DNA of 64,000 nt from a virus (lineage: Duplodnaviria > Caudoviricetes), in IMG/VR virus record IMGVR_UViG_3300024493_000235, positions 32,001-96,000 of that record; one strand, 5' to 3'. Of this stretch, positions 30,959 through 56,651 are shown piece by piece. The position numbers and the translations under genes are program-made. The notes beneath the pieces are model-generated. The model was given only the letters and a program-made list of their open reading frames with translations. It made no database searches and was not told where the DNA came from. The stretch's first letter is position 1, and every line of letters starts with the position of its first letter.

Positions 30959-31050
30959 CGCAAAAAAATAACTCTATAGGAATTTCTTTCTTGTAGAGTT
31001 ATTTTTTGTTTTTAAAGGAACAATACTTTTTTCACGTATATATTATACAA

Positions 31051-31128
31051 TTAAGATATATAGAGAATAGACTATTAGAGCCTTGAATCGTTGATTCGTG
31101 CTTATAGCAATATCCTATATTATCTTGA
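31051..31128 (+). ncRNA. Structured 5' leader hairpin, copy 1 of 5
   Basis: AAGATA/TATCTT and TATAG/CTATA stems; apical GAATC-GTT-GATTC. Confidence 0.65.
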
Positions 31129-31136
31129 GGTACGGT

Positions 31137-31604
31137 ATGAAGCTATGGGTATTTTGGGGCGATATCCCAAAATCGTTTGAACGGGAAGATGGGCACAGTA
31201 TTTGGGAGTACCCTGAACTTAAAGAGTATGAGCCTGAGAAAGGCAAACGGCCAGACCATCCTGATAACATCATTGAGCGCGTGAAAGACATGGGCAAAAA
31301 GATAATAAGGCTCAATGTCGAAAACGGATTTCAAAACGCTTATCTTACAACGTATTCAGAACTTGTCTTAGCACAAATACGGTTTCTATCTCTTAATGCG
31401 TATGTGCAGCCAAAAGAAGCAGGAGACCAAGAGTTTCCATACTATGATCAAATTGTTTTTATCATTCCGGATAAAGACGGTATTGATTATAATGTGTGCG
31501 CCATGACAGAGTTCTGCACGCTTGAAGGCTGGCCGGATAAATCTGCCACAAAGGTTGTTGGTATCGAACAGGATATCGCAACCTTGCAAAAAGAACTAGC
31601 ATAA
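31137..31604 (+). CDS. Truncated ABC-ATPase C-terminal (DUF3696-like) family protein
   Basis: MKLWVFWG, EYPE...PDHP, TTYSELV, LEGWP. Confidence 0.65.
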   Translation: MKLWVFWGDIPKSFEREDGHSIWEYPELKEYEPEKGKRPDHPDNIIERVKDMGKKIIRLNVENGFQNAYLTTYSELVLAQIRFLSLNAYVQPKEAGDQEFPYYDQIVFIIPDKDGIDYNVCAMTEFCTLEGWPDKSATKVVGIEQDIATLQKELA

Positions 31605-31707
31605 CGTATATTAAGGGGCTCAAAAAGCCTCTTAATTTTATTTATTTTTTTAACAGTCAAAATTAAATATACTTATATATAATAGCTATAGCTAGGAGGC
31701 GTAGAAG

Positions 31708-32040
31708 ATGGTTATAACTGACATTATTTTTGAGCAGAGGGATGAATATTTTAATACCGACCCCGAAGGACTTGAAGAGCGTAAAAATAACGCTGCCGAA
31801 ACATTTATCGATGAGTACCTTGGTGTACTAAACGATATTGTCTATGGAATGTACAATGAAATAATCACGCAGGTTAAAAATTATATGCACAGAATGTCGA
31901 TATACGGATATAAACCGAGTCGATTTCGTAACATGTATTTTTCAAACAAAAGCAAGGATCCGAAGTTAGCAAACGATGACACCGTAAATAACACCGTCAT
32001 TAAAACCCTGCGAAGAATTCACAGGGTTATTTTTTGTTTG
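31708..32040 (+). pseudogene. 3'-truncated gene with no stop before its terminator
   Basis: Promoter 31674 and AGGAGG RBS; frame runs through hairpin 32004-32027 and T tract into the next promoter. Confidence 0.45.
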
Positions 32041-32073
32041 AGTATATATAATATCAACATGAAGGAGAATGTA

Positions 32074-32502
32074 ATGATATACACATCGTATTTCGCTATT
32101 TCAAAAAGTTGTCCGTTTCCGATATCTATTACGGCAACACAACCGACGGGATTTTCGTATCCAAGCCTATCAATGCTTGCTGTACCGAAAGATCTTTCTG
32201 ATGAATATAAAACTCGTCTTATAAAAGATGAGAAATATATTGAAAGATACAATGAAATGCTTAAAACACTCAATGTATCTGATGTACTTGAAGCTATTGA
32301 AGGATTAAAAAGACAACGTTACTATTATGGTAGCGATTGTACATTGATTTGCTGGGAGAAACCTGGGATATTTTGTCATCGTAATCTCGTCGCAGAATGG
32401 CTTAAACGTGAAGGACATCTTGTGGCAGAATTTGATGTAAATTCCTATGTTCCTAAGAAACAAGAAGGTCCGACATCTGTATACAAGCCGGGTAAAAAAT
32501 GA
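32074..32502 (+). CDS. DUF488-like protein
   Basis: Own promoter (32043) and AAGGAG RBS; MIYTSYFA...LICWEKPGIFCHRNLVAEWL. Confidence 0.75.
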   Translation: MIYTSYFAISKSCPFPISITATQPTGFSYPSLSMLAVPKDLSDEYKTRLIKDEKYIERYNEMLKTLNVSDVLEAIEGLKRQRYYYGSDCTLICWEKPGIFCHRNLVAEWLKREGHLVAEFDVNSYVPKKQEGPTSVYKPGKK

Positions 32503-32513
32503 AGGAGAATTAT

Positions 32514-33029
32514 ATGGACGAAGAAAATGCCGAGGTTATCACTACAGATAAACCACCTGAAAAAGAGGAAGAAGACGTTACATGTCATGCCATAGACAAA
32601 CCGCCTGAGAAAGAACCTGAAGTCGAAAAGACTGAAATGGACTTCGAAGATATTGCAAAGAATGTGCTAGGTCCCATTATGCAAAAAGTGGACGAAATGG
32701 CCTTCGATTGCATTTCTTCTTATAAAGGAGATAGCGATACACCAACACACCATCCTTTCTATGTGAAAGACGGAGTCCTTAAGAAGTTAAACGAAGTAAT
32801 AACTTACTTAGAAGACAGAGAAAGTTATTACAGAAACGCCAGCCTTATAGCATTTGCCTTGAAAAAGGATGGTGATAAACCTGCAAGGAAATACAAAGGG
32901 ATGCTCTCAGTAGCTAAAGCTATATGGGGTCTTATCGTAGCAAGGCAAGAACAAATACAAGCCGAAATTGACAGTGCACAAAAAGATCAAAATTATGATG
33001 AAATTGCACGCAAACTCGGCTTTGATTAA
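32514..33029 (+). CDS. Hypothetical protein with N-terminal DKPPEKE repeat
   Basis: AAGGAG RBS before ATG 32514. Confidence 0.7.
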   Translation: MDEENAEVITTDKPPEKEEEDVTCHAIDKPPEKEPEVEKTEMDFEDIAKNVLGPIMQKVDEMAFDCISSYKGDSDTPTHHPFYVKDGVLKKLNEVITYLEDRESYYRNASLIAFALKKDGDKPARKYKGMLSVAKAIWGLIVARQEQIQAEIDSAQKDQNYDEIARKLGFD

Positions 33030-33040
33030 AAGGAATTTTT

Positions 33041-33670
33041 ATGACACAGACAGATATGTATAATTATCTTCTTTCGCCTCCACATCCATGGAAGAAAGAA
33101 GAACTTGTTGTCCTGCAAAAGATGCATTTGGATGCAAGGCTTTCTATATCGTATAACCTTGTACGTTTAGGATTTGAACCGGCTGCTGAGAAAGGATTTG
33201 TAGAACACATACTTTCTAATGGAACGTGCAATGATATACATCTAAATTTTGACATCGGATATATTCAAGTCTTTAACGAAAGTTTAGACGAAAGGGTGTT
33301 TCAAGGAAGGGCACATTTGCATAATATTGCAACAAACGGCCGTGGATTCGGCTATAGCTACAGTGCTGACAAATGGGATCTTCGTGACGAACAAGAACTT
33401 GACAGACAGTATATCAATAATGCTTTAAATAAAATCGTGAACTCGTTTGATATCATCATCAAAGGTAAAACCGAATTTGACTTACAGTTAAAATTCGTTG
33501 ATTATAATTACCCTAAACCTCGTGGAATAGAAATAATCAACGAGAATGCGCTTAAAGAATACAGAGAAAAAAGTGCATCACGACTGTTTATTCATAAGAA
33601 CAAGCGCCTTGATATCGATTACTGCCGGTATACGGTTAAGGTTCACGACCGTACGATTCCTGTATCCTAG
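33041..33670 (+). CDS. Hypothetical protein
   Basis: 209-aa ORF, AAGGA RBS. Confidence 0.7.
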   Translation: MTQTDMYNYLLSPPHPWKKEELVVLQKMHLDARLSISYNLVRLGFEPAAEKGFVEHILSNGTCNDIHLNFDIGYIQVFNESLDERVFQGRAHLHNIATNGRGFGYSYSADKWDLRDEQELDRQYINNALNKIVNSFDIIIKGKTEFDLQLKFVDYNYPKPRGIEIINENALKEYREKSASRLFIHKNKRLDIDYCRYTVKVHDRTIPVS

Positions 33671-33678
33671 GACAGCAT

Positions 33679-34023
33679 ATGACAGAAAAAGATACACTTA
33701 AAATGATCCAAGATCAAACTGCTGTCGATGATTGGAGACAAATGCAAACTGACCTTGTCAATTTGTTAAATAGAACAAGGGATGCCGAGGGGCTGATACA
33801 TGTTTATCTTACAAATCTTGTACAATTTCTTACACAAGCGACTGCACAGACAATAAAAATAAACACAGCCCATGAATCAAGGGTGATATCGGAAGAAGAA
33901 TTCTTAAGACAAATAGAAGATCTTACTCCCGAAATTCACCATAAACTTTCAAAGAAAGAAATCGTCATTCAATTATTGTTTGATGCTCTTTCTATGGACG
34001 GAGGAGTTCCACATGCCCAATAA
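33679..34023 (+). CDS. Hypothetical protein
   Basis: 114-aa ORF, AGGA RBS. Confidence 0.65.
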   Translation: MTEKDTLKMIQDQTAVDDWRQMQTDLVNLLNRTRDAEGLIHVYLTNLVQFLTQATAQTIKINTAHESRVISEEEFLRQIEDLTPEIHHKLSKKEIVIQLLFDALSMDGGVPHAQ

Positions 34024-34567
34024 CGATGATAAAACAAAAGAATTGCGTGAATTGACAATTCACGCAAAATTTACAGCAACAGTCAACATTTGCAGAATTG
34101 ACGATCTCAAAGCTACAAACGTGCTTATAAAAGTTTTGGAAGACCAAAACGCAGTTTTTCATTTTCTAAAGATTAATCCTGTAATTCATGCAGGCGATTC
34201 GCACAAGATAAGACATTTACGTGATCATGATGTGATTCATTGCAAAACTCCAGATTTTACACAATCAGATTTACATCTACTTATACTGCATTGTGCTGGC
34301 CTTCCGCATCATATCGAGGGGTATAATTGCAATCCTGAAAAGGCTATTGTGACTAAAATTCAACACCTTATTCATGAACGTACAAAGGAGTTGCTGCGAA
34401 AGTGCATATTTTATCCTCCTGTAGATCAACCGGGAAAAATTGAACTTCCTTACGATGATCAAGTCGGTCAAATCGCTACAGTGGCACGTGCAGACATTAC
34501 TCCAATTGATACGCTAACAGTTTACATCGACAGCATAAAGCCTGTTAGAACGTTTTTCAAAATATAA
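34013..34567 (+). CDS. Hypothetical protein
   Basis: GGAGGAG RBS before ATG 34013; terminator about 34572-34595. Confidence 0.65.
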   Translation: MPNNDDKTKELRELTIHAKFTATVNICRIDDLKATNVLIKVLEDQNAVFHFLKINPVIHAGDSHKIRHLRDHDVIHCKTPDFTQSDLHLLILHCAGLPHHIEGYNCNPEKAIVTKIQHLIHERTKELLRKCIFYPPVDQPGKIELPYDDQVGQIATVARADITPIDTLTVYIDSIKPVRTFFKI

Positions 34568-34855
34568 CAACAAGGGAGCTATTCTTAGCTCCCTTTATTT
34601 TTCTTTAAGGAATGTGGTTACATAAATAGATAAAGAAGTAATCGTTTTAAAAGACTTGAGATTGTGCACACAAATGTCTCTTGTTTTATCGACAGTGTCA
34701 TTCGGACAATACCAAGAAAAATTTTATTATCCTGAAACATGTCGAGAGCATAACGTATCCTAATGATACGCACAAACTGTTTTAAAACAGCGATTTAACT
34801 CCTTCTGGCTTTTGCCAGAAGGTTATTTTCTTTTTGGAGTATATATAATAAAAAC

Positions 34856-36160
34856 ATGGAAACACAAACAACGGAAATCATATCCAATTTTAATTTCAAT
34901 GCGATGTTTATAGCTGTCATTTCGATGTTTGCTATAACACTATTGTCAACGGTTTACAAGAAAGGTGTCGCCGGTTTATTTAAACTTATCTTTAAACACC
35001 TTACAACCCGTGTCGAAGTATCTTCAAGTCATTGGGCATACTTTCAATTAATCAGGCTTTTAAATATCAATGATGAAAAAGAAAAAAGAATTCGTACCTT
35101 TAGACTTAATAATGGCAGATGGGGAGATGAAAAGTTCATATCCTTAGGGATAGGAAAAGGCACACACTTACTTAAAATTTACTGTAAATTGTGTATAATA
35201 AACCTAGAAGAAAAAGACACACAATGGAATGAAGAAAAATTCATTCTAAATATTGTACTTTTTGGCCGTAATTTAGAATTTATTAAGCTCTTATTGACAA
35301 GGCTCTACGAGATTAAAAACAAACCGGATATCAACAACAACGAGATTGTGATTTATACAATCGAAGATAACACTTGGAAAGAGACAATCGTACTTGAAAA
35401 ACGTGCAGAAGATACAATCTTTATAGATTATCTTGCAAAACAAAAAGTGTTTAACTTTGTCGATAACTTCTATAATCGTAAAGATTGGTACGTTGAAAAA
35501 GGTATCCCATATCAAGCTGGTATATTATTATACGGGCCTCCAGGAACAGGAAAGACTTCGTTTGTTAAAGTGATAGCATCTAAGTTTAACAAAAATATTT
35601 ATTATCTTAAAGCAAGCGAACTTTCAAAACTTCAAACAGCTTTAGTAACACTCCCAAAAGATTGTATCCTTCTAATCGAAGATATCGATTCGAACGATCT
35701 AGTGCTTGATCGAAGTAAACGAGAGCAAAATAACGAAAAGCTCAATATCGAAACGAATGCTGACGGTAAAGCAAAAATCGCCGTCGAGAAAATAAACCTC
35801 TCGGATATTCTTAACTTCATGGATGGAGTTCTTTCTATTCCAGGAAGATTTTTAATTGCTACAACAAACAAAAAGGAGAAAATTGATCCTGCATTGCTTA
35901 GACCGGGAAGGATTGATATGGCTATTGAAATCGGTTATATCCATTACGGGAATTTCCTTGAGTTTATAGTAAAATATTACAACGATTATCTTACAAGCAT
36001 TCCTGATTATGGCCAATTCTTTGCACAAAAATCGGCGTTAAAGAAACTGAAAAGTGATACTCTTACTATTTCAGAATTGCAAAATGACTTCTTAGTTAAC
36101 GAACTATCGTTCGATGCAATGTTTGAGAAATATACTGAGTATTCAAAGGAGCTACCATGA
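34856..36160 (+). CDS. BCS1-like membrane-anchored AAA+ ATPase
   Basis: N-terminal TM helix; WY.EKGIPY..GILLYGPPGTGKTS, LLIEDID, LSDILNFMDG, TTN, DPALLRPGRID. Confidence 0.85.
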   Translation: METQTTEIISNFNFNAMFIAVISMFAITLLSTVYKKGVAGLFKLIFKHLTTRVEVSSSHWAYFQLIRLLNINDEKEKRIRTFRLNNGRWGDEKFISLGIGKGTHLLKIYCKLCIINLEEKDTQWNEEKFILNIVLFGRNLEFIKLLLTRLYEIKNKPDINNNEIVIYTIEDNTWKETIVLEKRAEDTIFIDYLAKQKVFNFVDNFYNRKDWYVEKGIPYQAGILLYGPPGTGKTSFVKVIASKFNKNIYYLKASELSKLQTALVTLPKDCILLIEDIDSNDLVLDRSKREQNNEKLNIETNADGKAKIAVEKINLSDILNFMDGVLSIPGRFLIATTNKKEKIDPALLRPGRIDMAIEIGYIHYGNFLEFIVKYYNDYLTSIPDYGQFFAQKSALKKLKSDTLTISELQNDFLVNELSFDAMFEKYTEYSKELP

Positions 36161-36588
36161 AACTATATGTATTTTGGGGTGAAACACCAAGTTCTTTTCC
36201 ACCCTTAGTGTATCGAAATTCCATTGATTATCCTGAGATGTTTCACGACTATGATCCAAAGTATAGTCGTCCAAGACATCCTAAGACAATTGAAAAATAT
36301 ATCCGAGAATATGTCGAACGCGAATATGCTAAACCGGCTGATAATGATATATTTTTCATACGTACTTACTCAGAACTCGTTATAGATATTATTCGAGTTC
36401 TTGCGAAGAAAGCTTTACATGGAAATGACGGTATTCAATTTCCACATTACGACGAAATCACTTTCGTTGTCCCTAACGAAGAACGTGATGGCTATGAAGA
36501 AATCGGTTTGGATGAACATTCGATGATTGATTACTGGCCTCCTGGATTTTGCGATACCCACGAAAAAATTCGCATGCAACTTATCTAG
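36157..36588 (+). CDS. Truncated ABC-ATPase C-terminal (DUF3696-like) family protein
   Basis: MKLYVFWG, DYPE...PRHP, RTYSELVIDIIR, IDYWPPGFCD. Confidence 0.7.
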   Translation: MKLYVFWGETPSSFPPLVYRNSIDYPEMFHDYDPKYSRPRHPKTIEKYIREYVEREYAKPADNDIFFIRTYSELVIDIIRVLAKKALHGNDGIQFPHYDEITFVVPNEERDGYEEIGLDEHSMIDYWPPGFCDTHEKIRMQLI

Positions 36589-36627
36589 CGATAAAAACAA
36601 TCTAAATCTTAGATGTGTATCATCTAA

Positions 36628-36933: not shown

Positions 36934-36945
36934 AGGAGGCTATTT

Positions 36946-37410
36946 ATGCACATGTATGTGTTTTGGGGCGATATTCCATCGTCATTCATTCGCAAAGGCG
37001 ATGCTTTTAAGTACGGTTATCCTGAAATAAAGCGTAATGGAGGAAGTTATGGAGGCTTTCCGATTCATCCTAATGATATACAGAAGAGTATACAAGATCA
37101 TATAAGAAACTTATATGAGAATGGTATCAGGACTGTATATGTCACAACGTATTCGGAACTCGTCATCGATACCATAAGACTTCTTTCCTTAAAAGCATTA
37201 TTGAAATATGATGACGTGAGATTTCCATTACACGACCAAATAACCTTTATCATTCCAGACGAAAATGGTGTAGGGTTTTACGAAAAATATATAGACAGGC
37301 GTTCAATAATGGACAGTTGGCCTATAGGATTCTGCGATCAGCATTCCAAAGTAATGGATTTACTTTTGCAATATTCCGGTGACATAAAGGATGAAAATTC
37401 GAATGCCTGA
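36946..37410 (+). CDS. Truncated ABC-ATPase C-terminal (DUF3696-like) family protein
   Basis: MYVFWG, GYPE...PIHP, TTYSELVIDTIR, MDSWPIGFCD. Confidence 0.7.
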   Translation: MHMYVFWGDIPSSFIRKGDAFKYGYPEIKRNGGSYGGFPIHPNDIQKSIQDHIRNLYENGIRTVYVTTYSELVIDTIRLLSLKALLKYDDVRFPLHDQITFIIPDENGVGFYEKYIDRRSIMDSWPIGFCDQHSKVMDLLLQYSGDIKDENSNA

Positions 37411-37672: not shown

Positions 37673-37696
37673 ATCGGGGCCAATTTCGGCCCCGAT
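37673..37696 (+). terminator. Intrinsic terminator, GGCC-core family
   Basis: ATCGGGGCC-AATTTC-GGCCCCGAT then T tract. Confidence 0.8.
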
Positions 37697-37746
37697 TTTT
37701 TATTTTTATTCGTATCTACATGGTAATTAATTATATATTATAATTA

Positions 37747-37817
37747 TGAAAGATAAGAAATTGATTATAGTAGCTTACAGATCGTTGATCTGCGCGTATA
37801 ACAATAATCTTATCTTT
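37747..37817 (+). ncRNA. Structured 5' leader hairpin, copy 2 of 5
   Basis: AAAGATAAGA/TCTTATCTTT stem; apical CAGATC-GTT-GATCTG. Confidence 0.65.
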
Positions 37818-37834: not shown

Positions 37835-38599
37835 ATGAAAAAGATTTGGGTAATCGCCTGTCTTATTCTAATCGCATTTGCAATCGTAAGTTGCAAAGCG
37901 AAGAACAAAGTCGTCGATGTGAAAAGCCAGGTAGAGGAAAGATTGCGTGCATATGTTGCACACGACCTTGAAACAGGGTCCGGAAAGGTTACAAAAGTTA
38001 CATTGAGTGATGCCCCCGAAGGCTCCGACCTTACATGGACTGCGTTTGCAACGTATACGCCAGATGCGGGTGATAATTATGATATTGAGTTATTGGTACA
38101 ACATCTTACCGCTACGAACTCTATCACATGGTGGTATGCAGCTAATTATCCGTATGGCGATAAAACAGTACCTCTTACAGGTGATATCGTTTTTGAAGAA
38201 CCGCTGAAATACCGAATGGAATACGATGTCCCATATGAAGAAGAGATGCCGGTACAATCTGTTTCAAATTCAAAAAATAAACAATCAGCAAACAATGAAT
38301 CGGCAGTTATTCTTGGCAAAGTGGAACAGAAAGGAAGTAAGTTTACTCTTTTTGATACAAACAAAAGAGAAATAACGCACATTGACATGCCAAATAGAGA
38401 GCTAATGGGCTGGGGCAATGATTTCTTCCTTACAAAATCAAAGGACAATACATTCAGATCGTATAATCTCAGAGGCACAGAAATCGGCTCAATAACCGTC
38501 AGTAATGTGGAGTCTGTAACCTTTGATAACGAAGGGTTTATTTTGAAACAAAAAGGATCGTCGCCGAGAAAATACAAAAAGAACGGACAATCAAGATAA
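37835..38599 (+). CDS. Lipoprotein
   Basis: MKK, hydrophobic stretch, then AIVSC lipobox; GAGGAG RBS. Confidence 0.75.
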   Translation: MKKIWVIACLILIAFAIVSCKAKNKVVDVKSQVEERLRAYVAHDLETGSGKVTKVTLSDAPEGSDLTWTAFATYTPDAGDNYDIELLVQHLTATNSITWWYAANYPYGDKTVPLTGDIVFEEPLKYRMEYDVPYEEEMPVQSVSNSKNKQSANNESAVILGKVEQKGSKFTLFDTNKREITHIDMPNRELMGWGNDFFLTKSKDNTFRSYNLRGTEIGSITVSNVESVTFDNEGFILKQKGSSPRKYKKNGQSR

Positions 38600-38602
38600 G
38601 TA

Positions 38603-38630
38603 ATATCGGGGCCAATTTTGGCCCCGATAT
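38603..38630 (+). terminator. Intrinsic terminator, GGCC-core family
   Basis: ATATCGGGGCC-AATTTT-GGCCCCGATAT. Confidence 0.8.
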
Positions 38631-38669
38631 TTCCGTTTTTATTTGTATTTTAAATATACATAATCTATA

Positions 38670-38745
38670 TGAGAAATAAGAAGATTAGATTATATGATTT
38701 GGGATTGTCAATCCTCGTCATTAACAAATACTTCTTAAAGTATCA
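38670..38745 (+). ncRNA. Structured 5' leader hairpin, copy 3 of 5
   Basis: TAAGAAG/CTTCTTA and ATGA/TCAT stems; apical GGATT-GTC-AATCC. Confidence 0.6.
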
Positions 38746-38756
38746 AAGAGAAAAAT

Positions 38757-38924
38757 ATGGACGACGATGAAGTGCTTACAGCAACGGTAGAATTGTATCT
38801 TTCTGCAGATAGAACTTACAAGCAACTACGTTTGGTACAGCTTATGCAGAAGGTATACGAAATCAACGACAAACTGGAAAGAGAAGCACAAAAGAAAAAG
38901 AAGCGCACGATTACAACACAATAG
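38757..38924 (+). CDS. Small hypothetical protein (55 aa)
   Basis: MDDDEVLTATVELYL...KKKKRTITTQ* directly after the leader hairpin. Confidence 0.55.
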   Translation: MDDDEVLTATVELYLSADRTYKQLRLVQLMQKVYEINDKLEREAQKKKKRTITTQ

Positions 38925-39126
38925 GAGAAATTAACCATGGAAAACGACGATCATTTTTTGATACTAAACAACCTTTTTGATTACTATTATAATAATTTAC
39001 AACGCGGGGATTTATTATCTGTGATACGTAACATCATCCTAGGGCCATTACGGCCCTAGGTGTTATTTTTTTGTATAAGTGAAATAAAATTTAAAATATA
39101 TATAATAAAAGATAAGGAGTCCTTTA

Positions 39127-41653: not shown

Positions 41654-43705
41654 TTGAAAGATATGGAGCTTACATGCACTAAATGTAACAAAACATTTTC
41701 ATTAACACGTAACGCATTTTTGAAACGGCAATACAGAGGTGTCGATACATCTCTATGTCAATGGTGTAGTAAAGCACACACAGAATTCAAAGATCATATA
41801 TATGTGCCAAAGTCAGAAAATCATATTTGCCAAAAATGCGGTAAATCCTTTACACTTACAAGAAGTGCATTTAATAAACGGAAATGCAAAAAACAAGATA
41901 CTACATTATGCAATCCGTGCAGAACAACTCAAACTACTTCTGATCGTCACGGATATGCATCTCCGCTTGCAAATCCTAATATATTACAGAAAACAAAAGA
42001 TACAATGCAAGAAAAATACGGTACAACATACGCACTACAGATTAAAGACGTTGAGGGTGTAGGATATCAAAAAGCTGTCACAACATTTCAAGCTAATTAT
42101 CACACTAATGCAGCAAATCCGTTAATGCATGCAGAAACACTTGAAAAAATAAAAGCAACAAATGTGGATAGATATGGAGATGCTAACCCATTGAATAATC
42201 CTGAAGTCAGAGCAAAGCAACAACAAACAATGATTAAACTATATGGAGGAAAACCCCAAGCAGAATCGGAAGAATGTAGAAAAAGAGCACTAGAAGTATT
42301 TCGAACAAGATACGGTCAAAATTGTTATTTGCAGTCTGCTCATTTCTCTGAGAAGATGGTACTAAAATTTGGAACAAGATACCCACAACTTACAACTCAT
42401 AGTAGTAGCAAAGAAGAAAGACATGTGTTCAGCAAAATTGAAGAACTCTTTTATCACGGTTTACTTAAAAATTCCAAATATACATTTATTTACAATGATC
42501 GAGAAAAATATAAAAACAGTGCTTTATTCACTTTCTCTTATGGTGATACCGATCATCCGTGGGACGGAATAGTGCTCAACGAAGATTATAGTATTGCACT
42601 CGTAATCGATTATGATGGTGAATATTATCATGGCGATTATCCTGACTATGATGGCGTACATTCTTCAGAAGAAAGGGATTCTATCAGAATGAAATGTGTT
42701 CCTAAAGATGCTAAGATACTTATCATCTATAAAGATACTCAGGATTACATTAAAGATATCGTTGACATACTTGGTATGGATTACGACGAATGGCTTAATA
42801 AGTTATACAACTATTGTTGTGGTATCGATTTTCCATTCTATCACAATTATTATTACGAAAAACAACTTTTACACAGTTGGAAAGCGCTTGCACTATTTAC
42901 TCCTGAGAAATGTGATAAAAAATCGTGGACAAAGCTCACCCAAGGACGCTCTACACTAGGTGGAAAACTTATTAATTATTTTCACCCGTCTATTTATAAA
43001 TGTCACACCAAAGGAAAAATATCACCATATGATGCATGGTATCATACCGATGAAAATGGTAATCGTGATTTACTTCGTAAATGTATTCGTAATAGAAGTA
43101 TTTATGCAAATTCGTATAAACCATATCGGATACTGCAAGGTTTTAACATTTCTGATATTGCACGAAAAATAACTACATTTTCAGCATCCAGAGCAAAAAT
43201 GTTACTCATAAAATATGCGCAAGAATTTGACCAAATCTTTGATCCTTTTATGGGATTTTCCGGTCGTCTTCTTGGAACTGTGGCTCTTAAAAAAGCATAC
43301 ATAGGAAACGACATAAATAAAACCATTATACAAGAAGCAAAAAATCTTATTAGATGGTTTGAAAGGCATAACATCGAAAATAGAGTTATTTTGACAAACA
43401 ATGATATACAATCGATCCCAAAAGAATATTCGATGCATAACGACGAATGCTTGTTTACGTGTCCTCCATACAAAGATACCGAAATTTGGTACGACGAAGT
43501 ATCAAAGCGAGAGATTAGATCTAATATGACAGCGGAGCAATGGGTTGAATTTTGTCTTGACACATTTAACTGTAAAAGGTATATATTCGTCGTCGATTCA
43601 CGATGTAACAAGTACAACAGCAATGTACAAGAAATATTTGTTAATAGAAGATCTGCAAAATACCATGTAAATCTTCATGAAAAAGTACTTGTTTTTGATA
43701 AATAA
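41654..43705 (+). CDS. Zn-ribbon + YG-repeat + Vsr/DUF559-like endonuclease + amino-methyltransferase fusion
   Basis: CxxC pairs, YGxxN repeats, WD...LVIDYDGEYYHG, FDPFMGFSGRLLG, YIGNDIN, LFTCPPY. Confidence 0.75.
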   Translation: MKDMELTCTKCNKTFSLTRNAFLKRQYRGVDTSLCQWCSKAHTEFKDHIYVPKSENHICQKCGKSFTLTRSAFNKRKCKKQDTTLCNPCRTTQTTSDRHGYASPLANPNILQKTKDTMQEKYGTTYALQIKDVEGVGYQKAVTTFQANYHTNAANPLMHAETLEKIKATNVDRYGDANPLNNPEVRAKQQQTMIKLYGGKPQAESEECRKRALEVFRTRYGQNCYLQSAHFSEKMVLKFGTRYPQLTTHSSSKEERHVFSKIEELFYHGLLKNSKYTFIYNDREKYKNSALFTFSYGDTDHPWDGIVLNEDYSIALVIDYDGEYYHGDYPDYDGVHSSEERDSIRMKCVPKDAKILIIYKDTQDYIKDIVDILGMDYDEWLNKLYNYCCGIDFPFYHNYYYEKQLLHSWKALALFTPEKCDKKSWTKLTQGRSTLGGKLINYFHPSIYKCHTKGKISPYDAWYHTDENGNRDLLRKCIRNRSIYANSYKPYRILQGFNISDIARKITTFSASRAKMLLIKYAQEFDQIFDPFMGFSGRLLGTVALKKAYIGNDINKTIIQEAKNLIRWFERHNIENRVILTNNDIQSIPKEYSMHNDECLFTCPPYKDTEIWYDEVSKREIRSNMTAEQWVEFCLDTFNCKRYIFVVDSRCNKYNSNVQEIFVNRRSAKYHVNLHEKVLVFDK

Positions 43706-43767: not shown

Positions 43768-44801
43768 GCAGGATTAAAGCCTGCGGCCATACCATTCTCG
43801 TAGAAACCGGCAGCGCTGTATTGCGTAGCGGCTCCTTGTTGCGGTTCGAGACCTGCAACATTCGGAGCTGTATCATCAGTGCTAGAAAGACGTTCATCAA
43901 CACCGTGCCATACCGAAACACCGAGGTCGAAATTAGAATAGTTGTCAGCATAGAAATTACTCTTTTCGAGTATTACTGCGGCTAAGCTGTTGACAGCGTT
44001 GTTTTCATGGAAGATACCAAAGAACGGAATATCCAGTTCCATCGGAGAATGCTCCCCTTGAGTATACTCGAAGTGACTGTTGGGAACTTGGTTCGGGAAT
44101 GCGCCAAACCATATACAGGCAAACTCGATAGAGTCTAATCCGTAAGCACCGCCTGAGTTATCAGTTAATGCATAAAGGATTATACCTGAATGGTTAATCG
44201 GTGAGAAGCGCAGATTACTTCCGTCGAAGGTCTTACCATGGTATGTACCATAGCCAGAACCTAGATCCGAAATACCGGTTACCCAATATTTTGAAATCTT
44301 ACGGAACATTCCGCCTTGCGTTTCTTGGAATTTGAGATTGAAGTTATTATTCCCTTTCTTGATGCCGGTTGGAACGCTGTAGCTTTCTGCGTTATTACCG
44401 TAAGTAATTTCGGCAGTCTGCAATTCGTAGTTTCCGATACCAGAGAGTCCCTTACACATACGCTCAATCATCCTCTGGCTTAAGCCCCTAATTGAAGGCT
44501 CAAAGAAGCGAGGCATGGAAAGAGCCCAGACACGTCCATAGCCGCCAATGAATGGCTCAATAAAAGGAAGAGTGTCCTGGGTGACGTTGGGAACGCCAAG
44601 GAATATGTTGTTGTTTGCAAAGTCGGGAATTACGTTTCTTGTGTTATCCCAACCGCGAGGGGGAGATCCGCCCCAGTCTATTATGGTTGTTGCGTCGGTG
44701 TAATCTCCAGGAGCCGGGAAGGTTACTTCGGAAGTTCTAAGTCGTCTATCCTCGGCATTACTGCCTTGAACGACAGTTTTTCCATCAAATGTTACAGCCA
44801 T
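43746..44801 (-). CDS. Tail tube protein
   Basis: Directly downstream of the sheath gene; FQE..GG...YWVTGISD and IEFAC..FGAFP motifs recalled from AR9-like tubes; GC-richer codon usage. Confidence 0.75.
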   Translation of the reverse strand: MAVTFDGKTVVQGSNAEDRRLRTSEVTFPAPGDYTDATTIIDWGGSPPRGWDNTRNVIPDFANNNIFLGVPNVTQDTLPFIEPFIGGYGRVWALSMPRFFEPSIRGLSQRMIERMCKGLSGIGNYELQTAEITYGNNAESYSVPTGIKKGNNNFNLKFQETQGGMFRKISKYWVTGISDLGSGYGTYHGKTFDGSNLRFSPINHSGIILYALTDNSGGAYGLDSIEFACIWFGAFPNQVPNSHFEYTQGEHSPMELDIPFFGIFHENNAVNSLAAVILEKSNFYADNYSNFDLGVSVWHGVDERLSSTDDTAPNVAGLEPQQGAATQYSAAGFYENGMAAGFNPAPASGGE

Positions 44802-44812
44802 GTGTTACCTCC

Positions 44813-46996
44813 TTACCGTGCTGCCACGACGTAGAAGTTCCACGTCTGTATGAAGTCCGTAAACTTCATTTCGATATACAAGGACGCAGCATTATCGTAT
44901 TTGTCCTGCAGCGTCTGCTCTGTTTTGATGGTCATCCTTTCAACCGGGCCGTTCATCTGGAGGTATGCAAGGTCACGTCCTACTTTCTCTTTAGCTTTCA
45001 CCATTGCGATTTCGGGTTTTTCCTCAAAGCGCAGGTCGGTAAGGATTTGCCTTCCCACCCATATCGCTTCACATACAGCATGGCAATTGCGGATAACAGC
45101 GAGATAACTAAGACGTTTAAGATACATTGTCCTAACGCTCATAATGGCGTATTGATTGAGGCGTACTTCTTCAACGTAGTTCATCTGCTCTTTTATGAGC
45201 TCGGTCTTCTGGTCTTCATCAGGATACCAAGAAAGGCTTGTCATGGTTTGTAAGATACCCTTTTCGGTTCCCGCCATCAATCGGTTCGGACCATAGTTCG
45301 CACGAAGCCAAGGAAGCTTAAATGCGATATCGTAGCAATACGTAACGTCAATGTTGCGTCTGTTGTACGCATCCCACGCAACGCCTGATTGCGGCCACAA
45401 TGAAGACTGCCAATCCTGAAGACCGTTAAGAACAGTCTTCTTGTAATTGATGGCGGCAGAACAGCTTGCGATGAATCCGCAGTCGATATATGCCATAACA
45501 TCCAATCTTTTGCGGCAGAAATAAATCATTTCTTTCTTAACAGCATCGACGTTTGCGGCATCAATTACGGCCGATATTTGATACTTATACGGAGAAAGTA
45601 TATTGGAATCTATTTCTCCCGCATAAGCTCTCCTGAAGAGCTCGTTTTTAACGGCGTCATAGGCTTCGTCGGCTTCTTTCTTACTTGCGTAATACTTAAG
45701 GTTGTCATTTACAGACGGATCTTTTGTTCCAACGACGTAGCGATCCCTATCGAGATCCCCATCATCTCCACCAACAAAAAAGTTATCACTTGCAGAAAGA
45801 TCCATATCGGGTTGTTTCTTGTTGTCAAAGAAAACAAGGTCTTCTTCGGCGGGGTTTATAAACCTTACGTACGGTTTTCCACTTCTGTCAGCAAGAGAAA
45901 TAAAATCGATAAACCTCGGATCCTGTGCTTCAGAGAGAATAAGAGTTCCAGTGGCATCTTTTACTTCGTCACAGTAAGGCTCGAATTGCCTTTGCAAACT
46001 TTCCCATGTATCATCGGATGTGAGAATTCCAATGTTGTCAATTTTCTTGATGTAATCCGTATCGGTGATTTTGGTGTCGATGAATTCAGAAACTGTCCCT
46101 GTGGAATCCACTGCGTCAGGATTAAACGCTACGGATATTGTGCTTCCTGTGGCGGCAAGAGCGATATTTCCTTTATCATCCTTTTCAAAGATGCTGTAGA
46201 AATACCGTCTGCCATCTTCGAGATCTTCTTCCCTTGTTTGATCGAGAGTTAAAGATACCGAATAGTTGTTTCCGAATTTACCGGATCCGCGGAGTTTGAA
46301 AATTGTAAGATAATTGTTTGTCCATCCGTTACCGGCATCGGAAGTTGTTCCGTTAAGGCGCGTTAAAAGCTGCTTTAACATAAGGGGTTCTGAAAGGCCT
46401 AATGTGGCCATATTCAAGAAGCTATCGGGAACACCGCAAATTGTCGGGGATATCTTGAGAGTCGGAATCTGAAGATTGACATCACCCAATTCTTGGAAGT
46501 TGTCTGTTAAATAAACAGAACCTGCTACAGCGCCTCCAGCGGGGACGACAGTAGTTTCCACTGTGCATTTGTATAATTTGCCGTTAAATGACCCGATTTG
46601 ATTTAATTTGAATTCTTCGCCTTCGCCTATAAGTCTGGCCGAAGCGCTCGTAAGAGTAACTGTCGAGGGTTTTGTGCGAATATTAAGAACTGCAAACGCA
46701 GGTTTAGCATTATCTGCAGTAACCCGCAACCCTAGTAACGTCCCACCACCTTTCAGCCATTGAATGCCGTTATAGATGTGCTGTCCATCCCTTGTGATAC
46801 GCGGGACACCAGAACGCCGGACATAATCCGTTTCGTTAAGGAACCTTCGTACTTTACCGTCCATCCCTTTCTGTGAGATATACGGCTGGAATAAGACAAA
46901 CCCTATAGGGGTAGTCGTCACTTCATCCACGATCGAATTATCGATAATCGCGGTAGTTACTCTGGAGTGTATATAATTATTAGAGACATCAATCAT
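44813..46996 (-). CDS. Contractile tail sheath protein
   Basis: HSRVTTAIIDNS N-terminus, LRVTADNA, RGSGKFGN, GGDDG, VIDA and R.D.MAYIDCG; AACA-N6-TA at 47085-47096. Confidence 0.85.
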   Translation of the reverse strand: MIDVSNNYIHSRVTTAIIDNSIVDEVTTTPIGFVLFQPYISQKGMDGKVRRFLNETDYVRRSGVPRITRDGQHIYNGIQWLKGGGTLLGLRVTADNAKPAFAVLNIRTKPSTVTLTSASARLIGEGEEFKLNQIGSFNGKLYKCTVETTVVPAGGAVAGSVYLTDNFQELGDVNLQIPTLKISPTICGVPDSFLNMATLGLSEPLMLKQLLTRLNGTTSDAGNGWTNNYLTIFKLRGSGKFGNNYSVSLTLDQTREEDLEDGRRYFYSIFEKDDKGNIALAATGSTISVAFNPDAVDSTGTVSEFIDTKITDTDYIKKIDNIGILTSDDTWESLQRQFEPYCDEVKDATGTLILSEAQDPRFIDFISLADRSGKPYVRFINPAEEDLVFFDNKKQPDMDLSASDNFFVGGDDGDLDRDRYVVGTKDPSVNDNLKYYASKKEADEAYDAVKNELFRRAYAGEIDSNILSPYKYQISAVIDAANVDAVKKEMIYFCRKRLDVMAYIDCGFIASCSAAINYKKTVLNGLQDWQSSLWPQSGVAWDAYNRRNIDVTYCYDIAFKLPWLRANYGPNRLMAGTEKGILQTMTSLSWYPDEDQKTELIKEQMNYVEEVRLNQYAIMSVRTMYLKRLSYLAVIRNCHAVCEAIWVGRQILTDLRFEEKPEIAMVKAKEKVGRDLAYLQMNGPVERMTIKTEQTLQDKYDNAASLYIEMKFTDFIQTWNFYVVAAR

Positions 46997-47223
46997 AGGT
47001 TATTTCCTCCTAGAGTGTTAGTAAACCTTTTAAAACCTTTCTCTCCGGCCGAACGACGGGGAGACAAGTTTTTCAAGGCTTGGTTATTAAAATGTTTTTT
47101 TAAGGCCTCAATTTCTGGGCATATTTTATAGAAGTTTGGGGCTAAAACATGGATTTAATGCCAAAATCCTGATAGTTCTATATTGATTTTGCGTATATAT
47201 AATATAAATATAAGGAGTACCAA

Positions 47224-49839: not shown

Positions 49840-49859
49840 TTTATATAGGAGGAAAAGAA

Positions 49860-50408: not shown

Positions 50409-50411
50409 CCT

Positions 50412-50929: not shown

Positions 50930-50986
50930 TTACTATCCGGGGCCACAACGGCCCCGGATATTTTATTAATAGCGAAGGAGAAACCT

Positions 50987-51595: not shown

Positions 51596-51684
51596 TAAAC
51601 TACCGTGGCCATCATTATGGCCACGGTATTTCCGTTTTTATTTGTATTTTAATTATATATCATATTAATATCAAGGAGATTAAT

Positions 51685-52047
51685 ATGACAACACAACTTA
51701 AAAAAATGACTCCAGAATTATTTTTAGATCTCTTTTCATATGCAAAGAATCATCAGGATTGTGAATCCTCTGCATTTCTCACAGATCTAAATCGGGTTAC
51801 GGAAAAGTTTCTATCTGCTCTTAGAAGTTTTTATCCTAATGTCGTTGATAATCCTTATCATCCGGATCGAAAAGCAATCATCGATGGTATTGAAGATTAT
51901 GTTATAACAGACATTGCTAATTGCATCAAAACTTATAATGCCGAAGGAAAAGATTTTACCGTAACGGATTTCCAAGCAATATGTGATGAATACGTAAGTG
52001 GAGCTAAAAATTTCGTTATCGAGATCCATAAAAAAACCGGAGAATAA
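51685..52047 (+). CDS. Hypothetical protein
   Basis: Promoter 51654, AAGGAG RBS. Confidence 0.7.
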   Translation: MTTQLKKMTPELFLDLFSYAKNHQDCESSAFLTDLNRVTEKFLSALRSFYPNVVDNPYHPDRKAIIDGIEDYVITDIANCIKTYNAEGKDFTVTDFQAICDEYVSGAKNFVIEIHKKTGE

Positions 52048-52080
52048 AATATCCTCAATGGCCAAATGGCCATTGAAGTA

Positions 52081-52368: not shown

Positions 52369-52496
52369 ATTTTCTCCTGATATTATTTAAATTAAAGATA
52401 GTTTTAGCTATATATAATATAACTAATAAAAGACACTTTAAGGTACTTCGATTAACCCAATGTTACTCTAGTACCGCAACACAAAAGGAGAAGTAT

Positions 52497-53093: not shown

Positions 53094-53104
53094 TTGGAGG
53101 ATTT

Positions 53105-53409
53105 ATGAAAGTAAACAACGATTTGTTCAAACTGCATTCCCTCACAGTGTTTTGCAAGTTAAAAAAGTATATCTTACATTTCATGTGACAGATGAGACCG
53201 GTGATGTCGTTATAGAAGATATAAAGAATCTCACTCCAACAGATGCCGATAGAGATATCTTTCTTTCTGATCTTTCATTTGCTGCAACAAATGTCACTGT
53301 TAATTTAAAAAGTGAAAGTGCAAAAAATTCTGTTTATGATGGTGTATCTGTTGTAATTAGAAAAACAAGCATCGATCATTATGAATTTGTCTATGCAGAA
53401 CCGCACTAA
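53105..53409 (+). pseudogene. Probably frameshifted member of the 29761/50987 family
   Basis: GGAGG RBS and ATG 53105 give only 27 aa; another frame carries VSVVIRKTSIDHYEF. Confidence 0.4.
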
Positions 53410-53438
53410 ATTTGTTTCTATTTACACAGGAGGAAAAC

Positions 53439-54122
53439 ATGACCACAAACGAAATCATGTCAAAGATTTGGGAAAACGACATGAACAAGCGACAGAAGGA
53501 CCATGAAGAAGAAAGAGAAAAGAGAAAATCGTATCGTAATGATTTTCTTCACTGGATGGATATGGTAACTCGTGACATTGCAAAAGCCGTGAGTACCATT
53601 TGTACCAATTTCATACTCGATACATCAAACAATGTTGAAAACGAAGTTGATGGTAAACATACTACCAAGTGTGTTGAAATCGGGGCTGGAAAAATTACAT
53701 TCGCTATTCCAATAAACAGTACAAGGATTATAAACTTTTATGGAAGCAGCGCAGAGAACTTCAACGACTTCGCAGACGGCATTACCTGGAAAATATTGTA
53801 CGTTCATCCGAAGGTGCTTCATATTCCAAATAACCTTAGAAAGGTTTTTCGAAGAATCATAAAAGATGAACCTCTTATTACAAAAGGTGCCATCAGTAAT
53901 GATGTACTTTCCGATGACATATTTTATGAAATCGTCGTTCCGCGCATTAGTTTTAAACAATGGGCAATTACATGTATAGAACGTTTGGAAAAACAAATTC
54001 GAGAGAATATGTCAAAAACGTTTGATACGATCGAATCTCTTAGCATTGTCGTCACAGAAATTAACGGAACGGATGAGACATTTACTTTCACTTGTGATAT
54101 TACAATTCCCTTTAATATCTGA
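53439..54122 (+). CDS. Hypothetical protein, distant paralog of 28156
   Basis: NEIMSKI...FLHW...IAKAV...ITFAIP...ITW; AGGAGG RBS; terminator about 54123-54156. Confidence 0.7.
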   Translation: MTTNEIMSKIWENDMNKRQKDHEEEREKRKSYRNDFLHWMDMVTRDIAKAVSTICTNFILDTSNNVENEVDGKHTTKCVEIGAGKITFAIPINSTRIINFYGSSAENFNDFADGITWKILYVHPKVLHIPNNLRKVFRRIIKDEPLITKGAISNDVLSDDIFYEIVVPRISFKQWAITCIERLEKQIRENMSKTFDTIESLSIVVTEINGTDETFTFTCDITIPFNI

Positions 54123-54209
54123 TAATTATAGGGGCTAAAATTAGCCCCTATAATTATTTTTGTTTCTATATTATTTTTAGGTATATATCATTTATCTGGA
54201 GGAATAAAA

Positions 54210-54716
54210 ATGAATATAGCGTCATATAAATGTCTTACCATAGATCAGATAGAAGATGTCGTTAAAGTACTTCATCGAATTGTCCCGACTCTTAAAGTGT
54301 CATATGATCTTGGTAAAGCGGCTGTCCGTGTAGAATTTCCGGACAAATCATATTTTTGGATGATGGGTACGCATTTCGTTCCTGCAAGTGTGCATGACGA
54401 AGTTGATCTCGTTATCCATATCGATATGCGTGATAGAAACGAAGTAGATTTTGTACACACACTTTTAGCATCAGACAGATTCTTTCAATCGCTTATCAAA
54501 AACCATACTGTGTGGAGTTTTATGGAACCGGGCTTTATAGAAGAATGTGATAACGAATATTACTGTTTCACTTTCAGAGTCCATACTCTTCACTTTGAAG
54601 TCTGTTACGACGGTCCACACAATTGGAAGGACGAAATTAATCATGATTCTAAAGACTTCGATGAAGACATCAAAAAGGTATTTGAAAATGTAAAACAGCA
54701 CATGATGTCTTTGTGA
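54210..54716 (+). CDS. Hypothetical protein
   Basis: Promoter 54182, GGAGG RBS, terminator 54721-54746. Confidence 0.7.
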   Translation: MNIASYKCLTIDQIEDVVKVLHRIVPTLKVSYDLGKAAVRVEFPDKSYFWMMGTHFVPASVHDEVDLVIHIDMRDRNEVDFVHTLLASDRFFQSLIKNHTVWSFMEPGFIEECDNEYYCFTFRVHTLHFEVCYDGPHNWKDEINHDSKDFDEDIKKVFENVKQHMMSL

Positions 54717-54809
54717 TATAACATACGCCGCAAATGCGGCGTATGTTATTTTTTTGTTGCAATAATTTATTTAATTATATATAATAAAAATACACAGAGG
54801 AGATTTAAA

Positions 54810-55262
54810 ATGATTTATACGTCTTATTTCGCTATAGCGCAACATGTACCGTTTCCAATATCGATCGCTTTAAGGGAGCCTGGAAACTACCCTAAAATAC
54901 CGTTTTTAGCCCCAACAAGTGAGCTATTATATGCGTACAAGCATAAAAACGTTAGTGAGACCCAATATATCGAGATATACAACGAAATGCTTCACAAAAT
55001 AAAGCCCGAAAGGATTATCTCTGAAATAAAGAAATTAAAGAAGAATTTTTACTATACTGAAGAAGATGTCACGTTGTGTTGTTGGGAAAAATCTGGTTAT
55101 TTTTGTCACAGACATTTAGTATCACAGTATTTATCTGAAGCTGGATATATGGTGGCAGAATGGGCGAAATCACCATCTTTATATATTGCTAACGCTCCAA
55201 AACATGGAAAACTTGCACCGGGATCTTCTGTTTCAGAATCAAATCCTGACGGATGGATTTAA
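54810..55262 (+). CDS. DUF488-like protein
   Basis: MIYTSYFA...LAPTSELL...LCCWEKSGYFCHRHLV. Confidence 0.8.
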   Translation: MIYTSYFAIAQHVPFPISIALREPGNYPKIPFLAPTSELLYAYKHKNVSETQYIEIYNEMLHKIKPERIISEIKKLKKNFYYTEEDVTLCCWEKSGYFCHRHLVSQYLSEAGYMVAEWAKSPSLYIANAPKHGKLAPGSSVSESNPDGWI

Positions 55263-55289
55263 AAATATTTTGAGTATATATCATCTATA

Positions 55290-55366
55290 TGAGAAAATAT
55301 AGAGATTAGATTATTAAATCTTGAGTCGTTGACTCGTGTTAGTAACAATATCCTGTATAAGTATCA
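55290..55366 (+). ncRNA. Structured 5' leader hairpin, copy 4 of 5
   Basis: TATAG/CTGTA and TTATTAA/TTAGTAA stems (G.U pairs); apical GAGTC-GTT-GACTC. Confidence 0.65.
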
Positions 55367-55377
55367 AAGGTTGTTAT

Positions 55378-55824
55378 ATGACTACAGCAATATATTTTAG
55401 AGACTTCACGATGACACTTCCTGAGAAAGACCGGAGAATAACCGCATTCTTAAGAATGATAAATTATCTCGCGGAGAAGAATGTCCACGCTTCAATACGG
55501 CACGAATCGGTTGAAGAAATGGAACTCACTGTATTCCGTACATCAAAAGAAAACGGTTACAGAGTTCTGTACTACGCGCAAGGCGATATTAAAATCGTCA
55601 TAGCCGATACATTTGGCAGTATCAACCAGCCCGCGATGTATACTAACATGGTGCAGGGCATTGTCGGCAAAGACGCTAAGGAAAATCTCGTCCACATCGA
55701 AGAGATCTATACATGCGACAGGAATCTCATTGGAAAGGTTATCAATGCGGACAGCGAAGAGAAAAAAGCTGCCGCAAAAGAAAATCTCAAGAAGTTTATT
55801 TACACAAACGATCCGATTCAGTAA
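55378..55824 (+). CDS. Hypothetical protein
   Basis: ATG 55378 after the leader; terminator about 55829-55856. Confidence 0.7.
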   Translation: MTTAIYFRDFTMTLPEKDRRITAFLRMINYLAEKNVHASIRHESVEEMELTVFRTSKENGYRVLYYAQGDIKIVIADTFGSINQPAMYTNMVQGIVGKDAKENLVHIEEIYTCDRNLIGKVINADSEEKKAAAKENLKKFIYTNDPIQ

Positions 55825-55866
55825 ACGTATATGGAGACCAAAACGGGTCTCCATATATTATTTTTT

Positions 55867-56499
55867 TTACACTAAAGGATACTTAGCATTTTCTGGTCTA
55901 TCTGTTAATGCGAGTTTTCTTAAAGCAGCATTCCTGTCTACACCACCAGCTTCATCTGCTTGTTTTTCGGACCATCGAGTTTTGTAGTACCAATAGTGCC
56001 TATCGTATATACACCAAGCTACATGGAACCACCTATCCCACATGTTGCAAAACACCGAACTGTATACACCAACAGTTGGCAGGTATAGCCACCCTAATGT
56101 TTCTGATTGTCCTATTTTATGTCCTTTTTCATGTCGTATGGTATATAAATCATGGGCTGTATTTAAACAGATATATTTTCCCATTGAAAACCCTGAAACA
56201 TTACCAAGTATTTTATCATTTTTATGGGAACAATAATCTGCTACATAAATTTTAAAGCCGGTTAATTCTTCCATTCCGTATAGGAATTTTAATTCTCTCT
56301 GACTTAGCACAATAAGTCTTTCTTTCCATAAACGACTCATTCCATAACCCAATGCGTTCTGAGGTAATTGCCACACCCATTCAAATAAAAACTTACCAAC
56401 CTTTTTGGCGTAAAGTTTTATATAATCCAGTGCAGTTTTAAAAAATGGCAATATTTTGGTAGATAAAAATATACCGATTTTTGTAAATAGATTTTTCAT
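55867..56499 (-). CDS. HExxH zincin-like membrane-associated protein
   Basis: WQLPQN.LG, RHEKGH, QS..LGWLYLP.VG; AACA-N6-TA at 56513-56524. Confidence 0.65.
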   Translation of the reverse strand: MKNLFTKIGIFLSTKILPFFKTALDYIKLYAKKVGKFLFEWVWQLPQNALGYGMSRLWKERLIVLSQRELKFLYGMEELTGFKIYVADYCSHKNDKILGNVSGFSMGKYICLNTAHDLYTIRHEKGHKIGQSETLGWLYLPTVGVYSSVFCNMWDRWFHVAWCIYDRHYWYYKTRWSEKQADEAGGVDRNAALRKLALTDRPENAKYPLV

Positions 56500-56575
56500 A
56501 TATACCTCCATTTACAAAAATGTTTTTCTACGATCCTATCGTATCTACATAAATCTTAAATATATATCATATTAA

Positions 56576-56651
56576 TGAGAGATAAGATATTTAGATTATA
56601 ATGTCTTGGATCGTTGATCCGCGCATGTAACAAGTATATCTTATGATATCA
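56576..56651 (+). ncRNA. Structured 5' leader hairpin, copy 5 of 5
   Basis: ATAAGATAT/ATATCTTAT stem; apical GGATC-GTT-GATCC. Confidence 0.65.

Follow-up and report, generated by a model that had tools for sequence, protein, structure and literature searches.

A recurrent, covarying 5′ leader hairpin behind early promoters of an uncultured AR9-like jumbo phage

What is the structured element that stands between early promoter and start codon at several places in the genome of an uncultured giant (jumbo) phage? The question is raised by a window of 64,000 nucleotides, bases 32001-96000 of the virus record IMGVR_UViG_3300024493_000235, in which a first-pass annotation had described five copies of a leader hairpin as a candidate cis-regulatory RNA (positions below are those of the window unless given as genome positions). 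The record is a 268,442-bp virus genome, ~91% complete, derived from a termite-gut metagenome; by PHROG matches it encodes split multisubunit RNA polymerase (RNAP) genes, a tail sheath and a major head protein, with RNAP beta-subunit families at 5216-7204 and 16582-18171. Its closest named relatives are the AR9/PBS1-like Bacillus jumbo phages (BpSp, Goe21 (PBS1-like) and LPJP1), with an RNAP subunit identity of only ~31%. Jumbo phages with their own multisubunit RNAP have been studied mostly via their promoters, and to our knowledge almost nothing is known of post-transcriptional control in them. In the AR9-like phage described here, one early promoter in six is followed by a covarying, transcribed leader, and we are highly confident that this is a real, transcribed and structurally selected 5′ leader.

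The promoters themselves follow a known pattern. Early promoters of AR9, mapped by differential RNA-seq and primer extension, consist of AAATATATATTAT, 6 nt and a G at +1 (PMC5312081). The early promoters here resemble those of the AR9 early transcripts (Lavysh 2017, PMC5312081) in having an AT-rich decamer, 6 nt and a purine at +1, in a phage that likewise has split multisubunit RNAPs, and TATAYATNAT-6N-R is present in 10/10 hairpin copies. TATAYATNAT matches the whole genome 60 times on the + strand and 28 times on the - strand, and ~60 of these matches precede a credible ribosome site and a gene. Only ~10 of these some 60 credible early promoters bear the hairpin, in keeping with the first-pass annotation, which had said that most promoters lack it. 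The same promoter type is also present in eight sheath-homologue contigs of related phages.

The five copies first described are present where they had been placed and align over promoter, leader and ribosome site, and each has, as claimed, a GTT or GTC apical loop at a distance of 52-53 nt from the start of the promoter. The family was undercounted, since the whole genome holds ten copies, all on the + strand and each directly behind a TATAYATNAT-6N-purine promoter. The register is the same in all ten: the 61-nt hairpin runs from +7 to about +67 and ends 17-25 nt before the start codon, which lies at +85 to +92. The five copies outside the window have their +1 at genome 25248, 107506, 151875, 209522 and 251441; those within it are as follows.

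31037..31046, + strand: early promoter of copy 1 (TATATATTAT); predicted +1 is the A at 31053, by the AR9 rule of consensus-6N-purine
31059..31119, + strand: hairpin of copy 1, three helices, apical loop GTT at 31090-31092; start codon at 31137
37732..37741, + strand: early promoter of copy 2; predicted +1 is the G at 37748; CGTATC box at -37
37754..37814, + strand: hairpin of copy 2, loop GTT at 37784-37786; start codon at 37835, of a 254-aa lipoprotein-like ORFan
38655..38664, + strand: early promoter of copy 3 (TATACATAAT); predicted +1 is the G at 38671
38677..38737, + strand: hairpin of copy 3, loop GTC at 38707-38709 with closing pair U-A; start codon at 38757, of a 55-aa open reading frame (ORF)
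55275..55284, + strand: early promoter of copy 4 (TATATATCAT); +1 is the G at 55291
55297..55358, + strand: hairpin of copy 4, loop GTT at 55328-55330; start codon at 55378; terminator at 55827-55858
56561..56570, + strand: early promoter of copy 5; predicted +1 is the G at 56577; CGTATC box at -37
56583..56643, + strand: hairpin of copy 5, loop GTT at 56613-56615; start codon at 56664

A script scan for the apical design found three further copies outside the window. A first covariance model (R1), built on eight copies, scored those eight at 76-104 bits and also detected a ninth and a tenth copy, at 55 and 27.5 bits respectively; a second model (R2), restricted to the hairpin, recovered all ten at 48-88 bits, with no other match on either strand. 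Overall, the covariance-model scores of the ten copies are 48-104 bits, with E values of 3e-5 to 1e-19. Neither the script scan nor the two models found an eleventh copy on either strand of the 268,442-bp genome. A 20.6-bit match at genome 25919-26015 was considered as such a copy and rejected: it is a different leader, with only the promoter and the ribosome site in common.

Several lines of evidence indicate that the structure, and not just the sequence, has been maintained. Each of the five window copies folds individually into the same long hairpin, and RNAalifold, run on an unfitted MAFFT alignment of eight copies, returned 22 pairs, 17 of them compensatory. Across the ten copies, standard pairs fill 91.7% of the pair cells, a share that falls to 37-47% once the 3′ partners are shifted by 1-3 columns. 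Both sides have changed in 19 of the 22 pairs (55 cells, compared with 5-14 in the shifted controls), and shuffled alignments reached the observed values of pairing and covariation in 0 of 500 trials. There are 21 G.U cells but only 1 A.C cell, and the + strand folds better than its complement in nine of the ten copies. Given the compensating changes, the excess of G.U over A.C and the better folds of the + strand, selection therefore acts on the + strand as RNA. The first-pass annotation had argued for selection at the RNA level from five copies, and both the ten-copy and the MAFFT alignments agree with it: the five window copies show the same apical stem variants that it listed, and the G.U pairs that it had noticed on the + strand are there in the counts just given. 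The alignment and covariance model that it had proposed as a check were built, and covariation among the ten copies is strong.

These data bear directly on the idea that the repeat is a DNA-level element, such as a miniature inverted-repeat transposable element (MITE)-like repeat, a palindromic operator or a recombination hot spot, with no role as RNA. As DNA, the apices form perfect palindromes, the lower helix could be taken for terminal inverted repeats, and an early promoter at 51654, described below, resembles an empty site. However, all ten copies share one orientation and one register to +1 with no stand-alone copy on either strand, the inverted repeats covary rather than stay conserved, and the imbalance of G.U over A.C cells likewise counts against such an element. 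In addition, a change in one half-site of the apex is always matched by a change in the other, and a protein operator would have no need of this. We regard the DNA-level reading as close to refuted. A MITE was among the outcomes that the first-pass annotation had named as contrary to its proposal; the single orientation, the single register and the lack of copies standing alone show that the repeat is not one.

The fold itself contains three stacked helices (8 + 8 + 6 = 22 pairs), or about two helical turns of mostly paired RNA, preceded by the first six bases of the leader, R-A-G-A-N-A, which are unpaired. The lower helix has eight pairs and varies freely, transversions included. Above it is an internal loop with an A and then G-A on the 5′ strand opposite C-A-A on the 3′ strand; these bases are each kept in 8-10 of the ten copies. 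The second helix has eight pairs with small bulges, its terminal pair being U.G in eight copies and C-G in the other two, and there is a pyrimidine-rich bulge (CU or UU) opposite a single Y. The apical helix, of six pairs, has changed by transitions only, so that purines remain on its 5′ strand, and it carries a G-U-Y triloop in which the G and the U are invariant. There is no U-tract after the hairpin, and it is therefore not an intrinsic terminator. Searches of Rfam gave no match at the gathering score for the whole window and nothing meaningful at E <= 5 for three copies, consistent with the first-pass annotation, which did not recognise the hairpin as a known RNA class; the leader is a candidate new RNA family, known from one uncultured genome.

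Other readings of parts of the leader were tried and rejected. Masking of the ribosome site by the fold does not agree with whole-leader folds, in which that site is mostly unpaired. A K-turn or a loop E in the internal loop would need GA/AGUA partners, which are missing. An upstream ORF beginning within 'ATGAGA' fails in that five copies lack the ATG, whose G is the predicted +1, and a hidden late promoter, AACA-N6-T(A/G), within the conserved TAACAA fits copy 4 only.

What might such a hairpin do? Because the lower helix is free to vary while loops and wobble pairs are fixed and the apex changes by transitions only, which is the pattern of a read-out surface, we favor a reading in which a sequence-specific factor, either a phage or a host protein, recognizes the top of the hairpin together with the purine-rich internal loop. 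The hairpin would act in cis and post-transcriptionally, on what becomes of the message, and the factor would give hairpin-led early messages a stability or translation different from that of the many whose leaders are 11-25 nt long. We put the probability of this factor-binding mechanism, acting on the stability or translation of a subset of early messages, at roughly one in three (0.35). With the leader as a defined RNA bait, such a phage or host factor could be sought.

The position of the hairpin close to the 5′ end would also suit a simpler role, in which no factor is involved and the hairpin shields long-leader messages from the 5′-dependent decay (RNase J/RNase Y type) of a Firmicute host. 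A strong ribosome site 2-5 nt from the 5′ end would do the same for most of the other early messages. In Bacillus, mRNAs are stabilized by 5′-proximal stem-loops and by 5′ sequences that resemble ribosome sites. Several features of the leaders would fit this. The hairpin starts at +7 at the latest, with 0-6 unpaired 5′ nucleotides predicted and pairing that reaches the first bases in copies 1, 2 and 10, the 5′ end being supported for copy 4 only. The ribosome site remains free. Hairpin leaders, which are 84-91 nt long where other early promoters have a median leader of 16 nt, also tend to have weaker ribosome sites (mean -6.6 vs -8.6 kcal/mol, p ~0.05). However, plain protection does not call for a three-helix design, nor does it need an invariant triloop, G.U pairs beside bulges or the A..GA/CAA internal loop, and the six unpaired 5′ bases of most copies are at the edge of what protects in Bacillus. 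We consider factor-free protection nearly as probable as factor binding.

Whether the hairpin is transcribed can be addressed for copy 4. RNA contigs from two metatranscriptome samples (one study, two runs) begin exactly at 55291, the predicted +1 of this copy, and run through the entire hairpin into the gene (55291-55473 and 55291-55503). As these contigs start at +1 and span the hairpin, the hairpin is therefore transcribed. Coincident contig ends give by themselves a weak hint of a 5′ end; here, however, they fall on the sole base predicted by the independent AR9 rule. The contigs start at +1 rather than downstream of the hairpin, the placement that the first-pass annotation had named as contrary to its proposal. 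One of the roles it had suggested, that of an excised decoy sRNA, is disfavored because the contigs carry the intact hairpin joined to coding sequence. Among the metatranscriptome contigs examined, none covers the other nine copies, which is not evidence that these are silent.

The same contigs weigh on the possibility that the hairpin is a signal for host RNase III, in which the ~22-bp irregular helix would be cut, the 5′ leader removed and the fate of the message fixed. Early RNA of T7 (R0.3, R1.1 and others) and of the Bacillus phage SP82 carries RNase III processing signals, and those of T7 are built from an upper stem, an internal loop and a lower stem. The three stacked helices and internal loops of the present hairpin resemble this design, and there are again multiple copies on early RNA. 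Those phages, too, have about ten related irregular hairpins on early RNA, and one type of hairpin there is located in the first gene's 5′ leader. B. subtilis RNase III is moreover known to cut stereotyped duplexes (PMC11780869). Despite these similarities, contigs of both samples show the complete hairpin from +1 joined to the coding region, and the duplex is interrupted by a 5 x 5 internal loop. Profile searches find neither an RNase III nor a dsRBD in the phage, and a 5′-monophosphate product would be open to RNase J in Firmicutes, which leaves the benefit of cleavage in doubt. The system also differs from the T7 and SP82 signals in that leaders in the RNA contigs are intact, all copies stand at the very 5′ end and not between genes, and the hairpin has no sequence or Rfam similarity to those signals. 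We consider processing by RNase III unlikely.

In principle, the hairpin could act on the polymerase and not on the message. In an antitermination or polymerase-modifying role of the lambda nut/N or HK022 put type, the nascent hairpin, alone or with a protein, would allow the virion RNAP to read through terminators. The hairpin lies right after early promoters, as nut and put do, there are terminator-like hairpins behind hairpin-led genes, and the conserved apex would suit a specific contact. If this were true, a hairpin that acts on the virion RNAP or recruits a phage protein would be a put- or nut-like signal for processivity or timing and would define an early sub-regulon; we know of no such RNA signal for the multisubunit polymerases of jumbo phages. 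However, the GUY triloop is not the boxB pentaloop, the element is a single hairpin and not the two-hairpin put fold, and Rfam gave no match at E <= 5. Furthermore, each terminator immediately precedes a fresh early promoter, and because of this read-through is not needed. Antitermination therefore appears very improbable.

The surroundings of the hairpin suggest how it came to lie in front of so many genes. Homology between copies spans -50 to +50 of the apex, with 72-82% identity over ~100 nt, and ends at the start codon; upstream, it sometimes extends into the preceding terminator. At this level of identity the copies are not fresh duplicates. The ten downstream proteins are mutually unrelated, as had been claimed for the five in the window, and eight of them have no Pfam or PHROG family, the other two being a P-loop ATPase and a DHH phosphoesterase. 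None of the five genes in the window has a Pfam or PHROGs family at E <= 0.01 or 0.001, and the labels 'DUF3696-like' and 'GNAT' that two of these genes had been given were not reproduced; the lipoprotein assignment of the copy 2 gene holds, as its sequence shows a lipoprotein signal. Copies 1-4 head single-gene units between terminators, with a fresh early promoter directly after each, whereas copy 5 heads three genes. The unit boundaries, in addition to the terminator given above for copy 4, are as follows.

30963-31007 and 31610-31636: terminators that bracket the one-gene unit of copy 1
37673-37696 and 38602-38631: terminators of the copy 2 unit
39038-39060: terminator of copy 3
57798-57824: terminator of the three-gene unit of copy 5

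One early promoter without a hairpin is informative for comparison.

51654..51684 (context 51609-51690), + strand: hairpin-less early promoter that leads directly into ATCAAGGAG and ATG

This promoter has 26 upstream nucleotides in common with copy 3 and 16 promoter-proximal nucleotides in common with copy 5, and it looks like the 'empty' form of the cassette. By this pattern, the hairpin module therefore acts like a segment inserted or deleted between +1 and the ribosome site. Judged by such shared segments, the intergenic cassettes are mosaics.

We read the element as the transcribed middle of a portable ~100-bp cassette of early promoter, leader and ribosome site. Such a cassette would comprise an AR9-type early promoter for the virion RNAP, the 61-nt three-helix hairpin, a short conserved linker, a ribosome site (AAAGG) of rather low strength, and the start codon, and it would have spread before unrelated ORFans via recombination between intergenic regions. 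The closest described parallel is provided by the promoter-early stem-loop (PeSL) cassettes of T4-type phages (Arbiol 2010, PMC2839356; Comeau 2014, PMC4122927). These, too, are repeated intergenic units of ~100 bp in which a consensus early promoter is combined with a stem-loop and the ribosome site of the next gene; they also stand before ORFans in single-gene units between terminators, and homology between units is likewise mosaic. The differences concern the hairpin and the polymerase. The PeSL stem-loop is a terminator or attenuator upstream of, within or just before the transcription start, whereas the hairpin here is transcribed (+7 to +67), long, three-part, without a U-tract and covarying with G.U pairs, and separate terminators lie upstream of the hairpin cassettes. 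PeSL promoters serve sigma-70, whereas the promoter here serves the polymerase that the phage itself encodes. Spread of the cassette by intergenic recombination, as proposed for PeSLs (PMC2839356, PMC4122927), would be compatible with every mechanism weighed above. The portable promoter-cassette route for plugging in ORFans that is known from T4-type phages would then exist in this lineage as well, with an RNA module added.

Relatives of the element were sought in several ways. Unlike the promoter, the hairpin was not found in AR9: covariance model R1 found no copy in the whole AR9 genome, and the long leaders g087 and g104, both of which were read, contain no such hairpin. Around sheath homologues (eight contigs, 44-62% identity, +-10 kb each, ~170 kb in all), the same promoter type occurs without a copy of the hairpin. 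No close relative emerged, the nearest of these sheath homologues being 50-62% identical. Exact IUPAC patterns, five of them run against the viral, one against the metagenome and one against the genome contig collection, gave 11 matches, and because all of these fail both covariance models they are chance matches. A blastn search with the window and one cassette against 50,697 phage records returned no match. No homologue at E <= 1e-10 exists for the DHH protein encoded downstream of copy 9, and a search for relatives via the major head protein yielded no locus.

Several points weigh against our preferred reading of a factor-bound, selected leader. With no homologue of the element found outside this genome, the comparative evidence comes entirely from paralogues. 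Paralogous copies may exchange sequence with each other, and identical apices in otherwise diverged copies could be a hint of such exchange. The transcript evidence consists of assembled contigs from one study and concerns copy 4 only, with contig ends that are a weak hint. Within the hairpin, unpaired columns are more conserved than paired ones (mean 77% vs 68%; 7/17 vs 9/44 columns kept in >=9/10 copies), but this excess of loop over stem conservation is modest. Finally, profile searches of the genome identified no candidate for the trans-acting factor: they found no RNase III, dsRBD, S1, KH or cold-shock (CSD) domain, and a RegA profile search was also blank, although this blank is uninformative, as the RegA control matched no genome.

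Additional observations concern the promoters and genes around the cassettes. A box, CCG(T/A)(A/T)(A/T)C or CGTATC, lies at -37/-38 from the predicted +1 of eight early promoters.

In the window: 37711-37716, 56540-56545, 38633-38639 and 51632-51638
In the genome: 209484-209490, 251403-251409, 31073-31078 and 159159-159164

The box is found at 5/10 hairpin promoters compared to 3/78 others. It also occurs at the same distance in 9/41 mapped AR9 early promoters (Table S2, PMC5312081) and in the related contig L021 (- strand, near 19779), and it may be the upstream element of a promoter subclass common to this phage group.

Long leaders are not confined to the hairpin family. Several other early promoters have leaders of 60-100 nt that form hairpins of their own, unrelated to this one (window 14736-14810 and 52409-52495; genome 25914-26015, 109040-109150 and 253844-253960), and related contigs likewise have long hairpin leaders, for example L025 (- strand, near 13348). 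In AR9, some early 5′ untranslated regions are long, and an unexplained motif was predicted in early 5′ untranslated regions by the authors (PMC5312081).

The proteins behind copies 1 and 5 have paralogues (30-41% identity) elsewhere in the genome that lack the hairpin leader, one of which stands behind a short-leader early promoter.

In the window: 36157-36540, 36946-37323 and 59342-59818 (- strand)
In the genome: 229241-229852 (- strand)

The structural genes are without the early motif, and the sheath gene has instead the AR9 late-type AACA-N6-TA. The region 46997-47130 (- strand) holds an AR9 late-type motif, AACAT-N5-TA, at 91 nt upstream of the start codon of the sheath gene, and it has no early-type promoter. 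The tail-sheath region 43909-47029 is covered at 100% identity by termite-gut metatranscriptome contigs from two samples, and the phage therefore seems to be active in situ. Two ORFs of ~690 aa, at 41654-43705 and 59954-62029, have matches to three PHROG families in common, of which two are homing-endonuclease families and one is of unknown function, and look like paralogous endonuclease-like genes.

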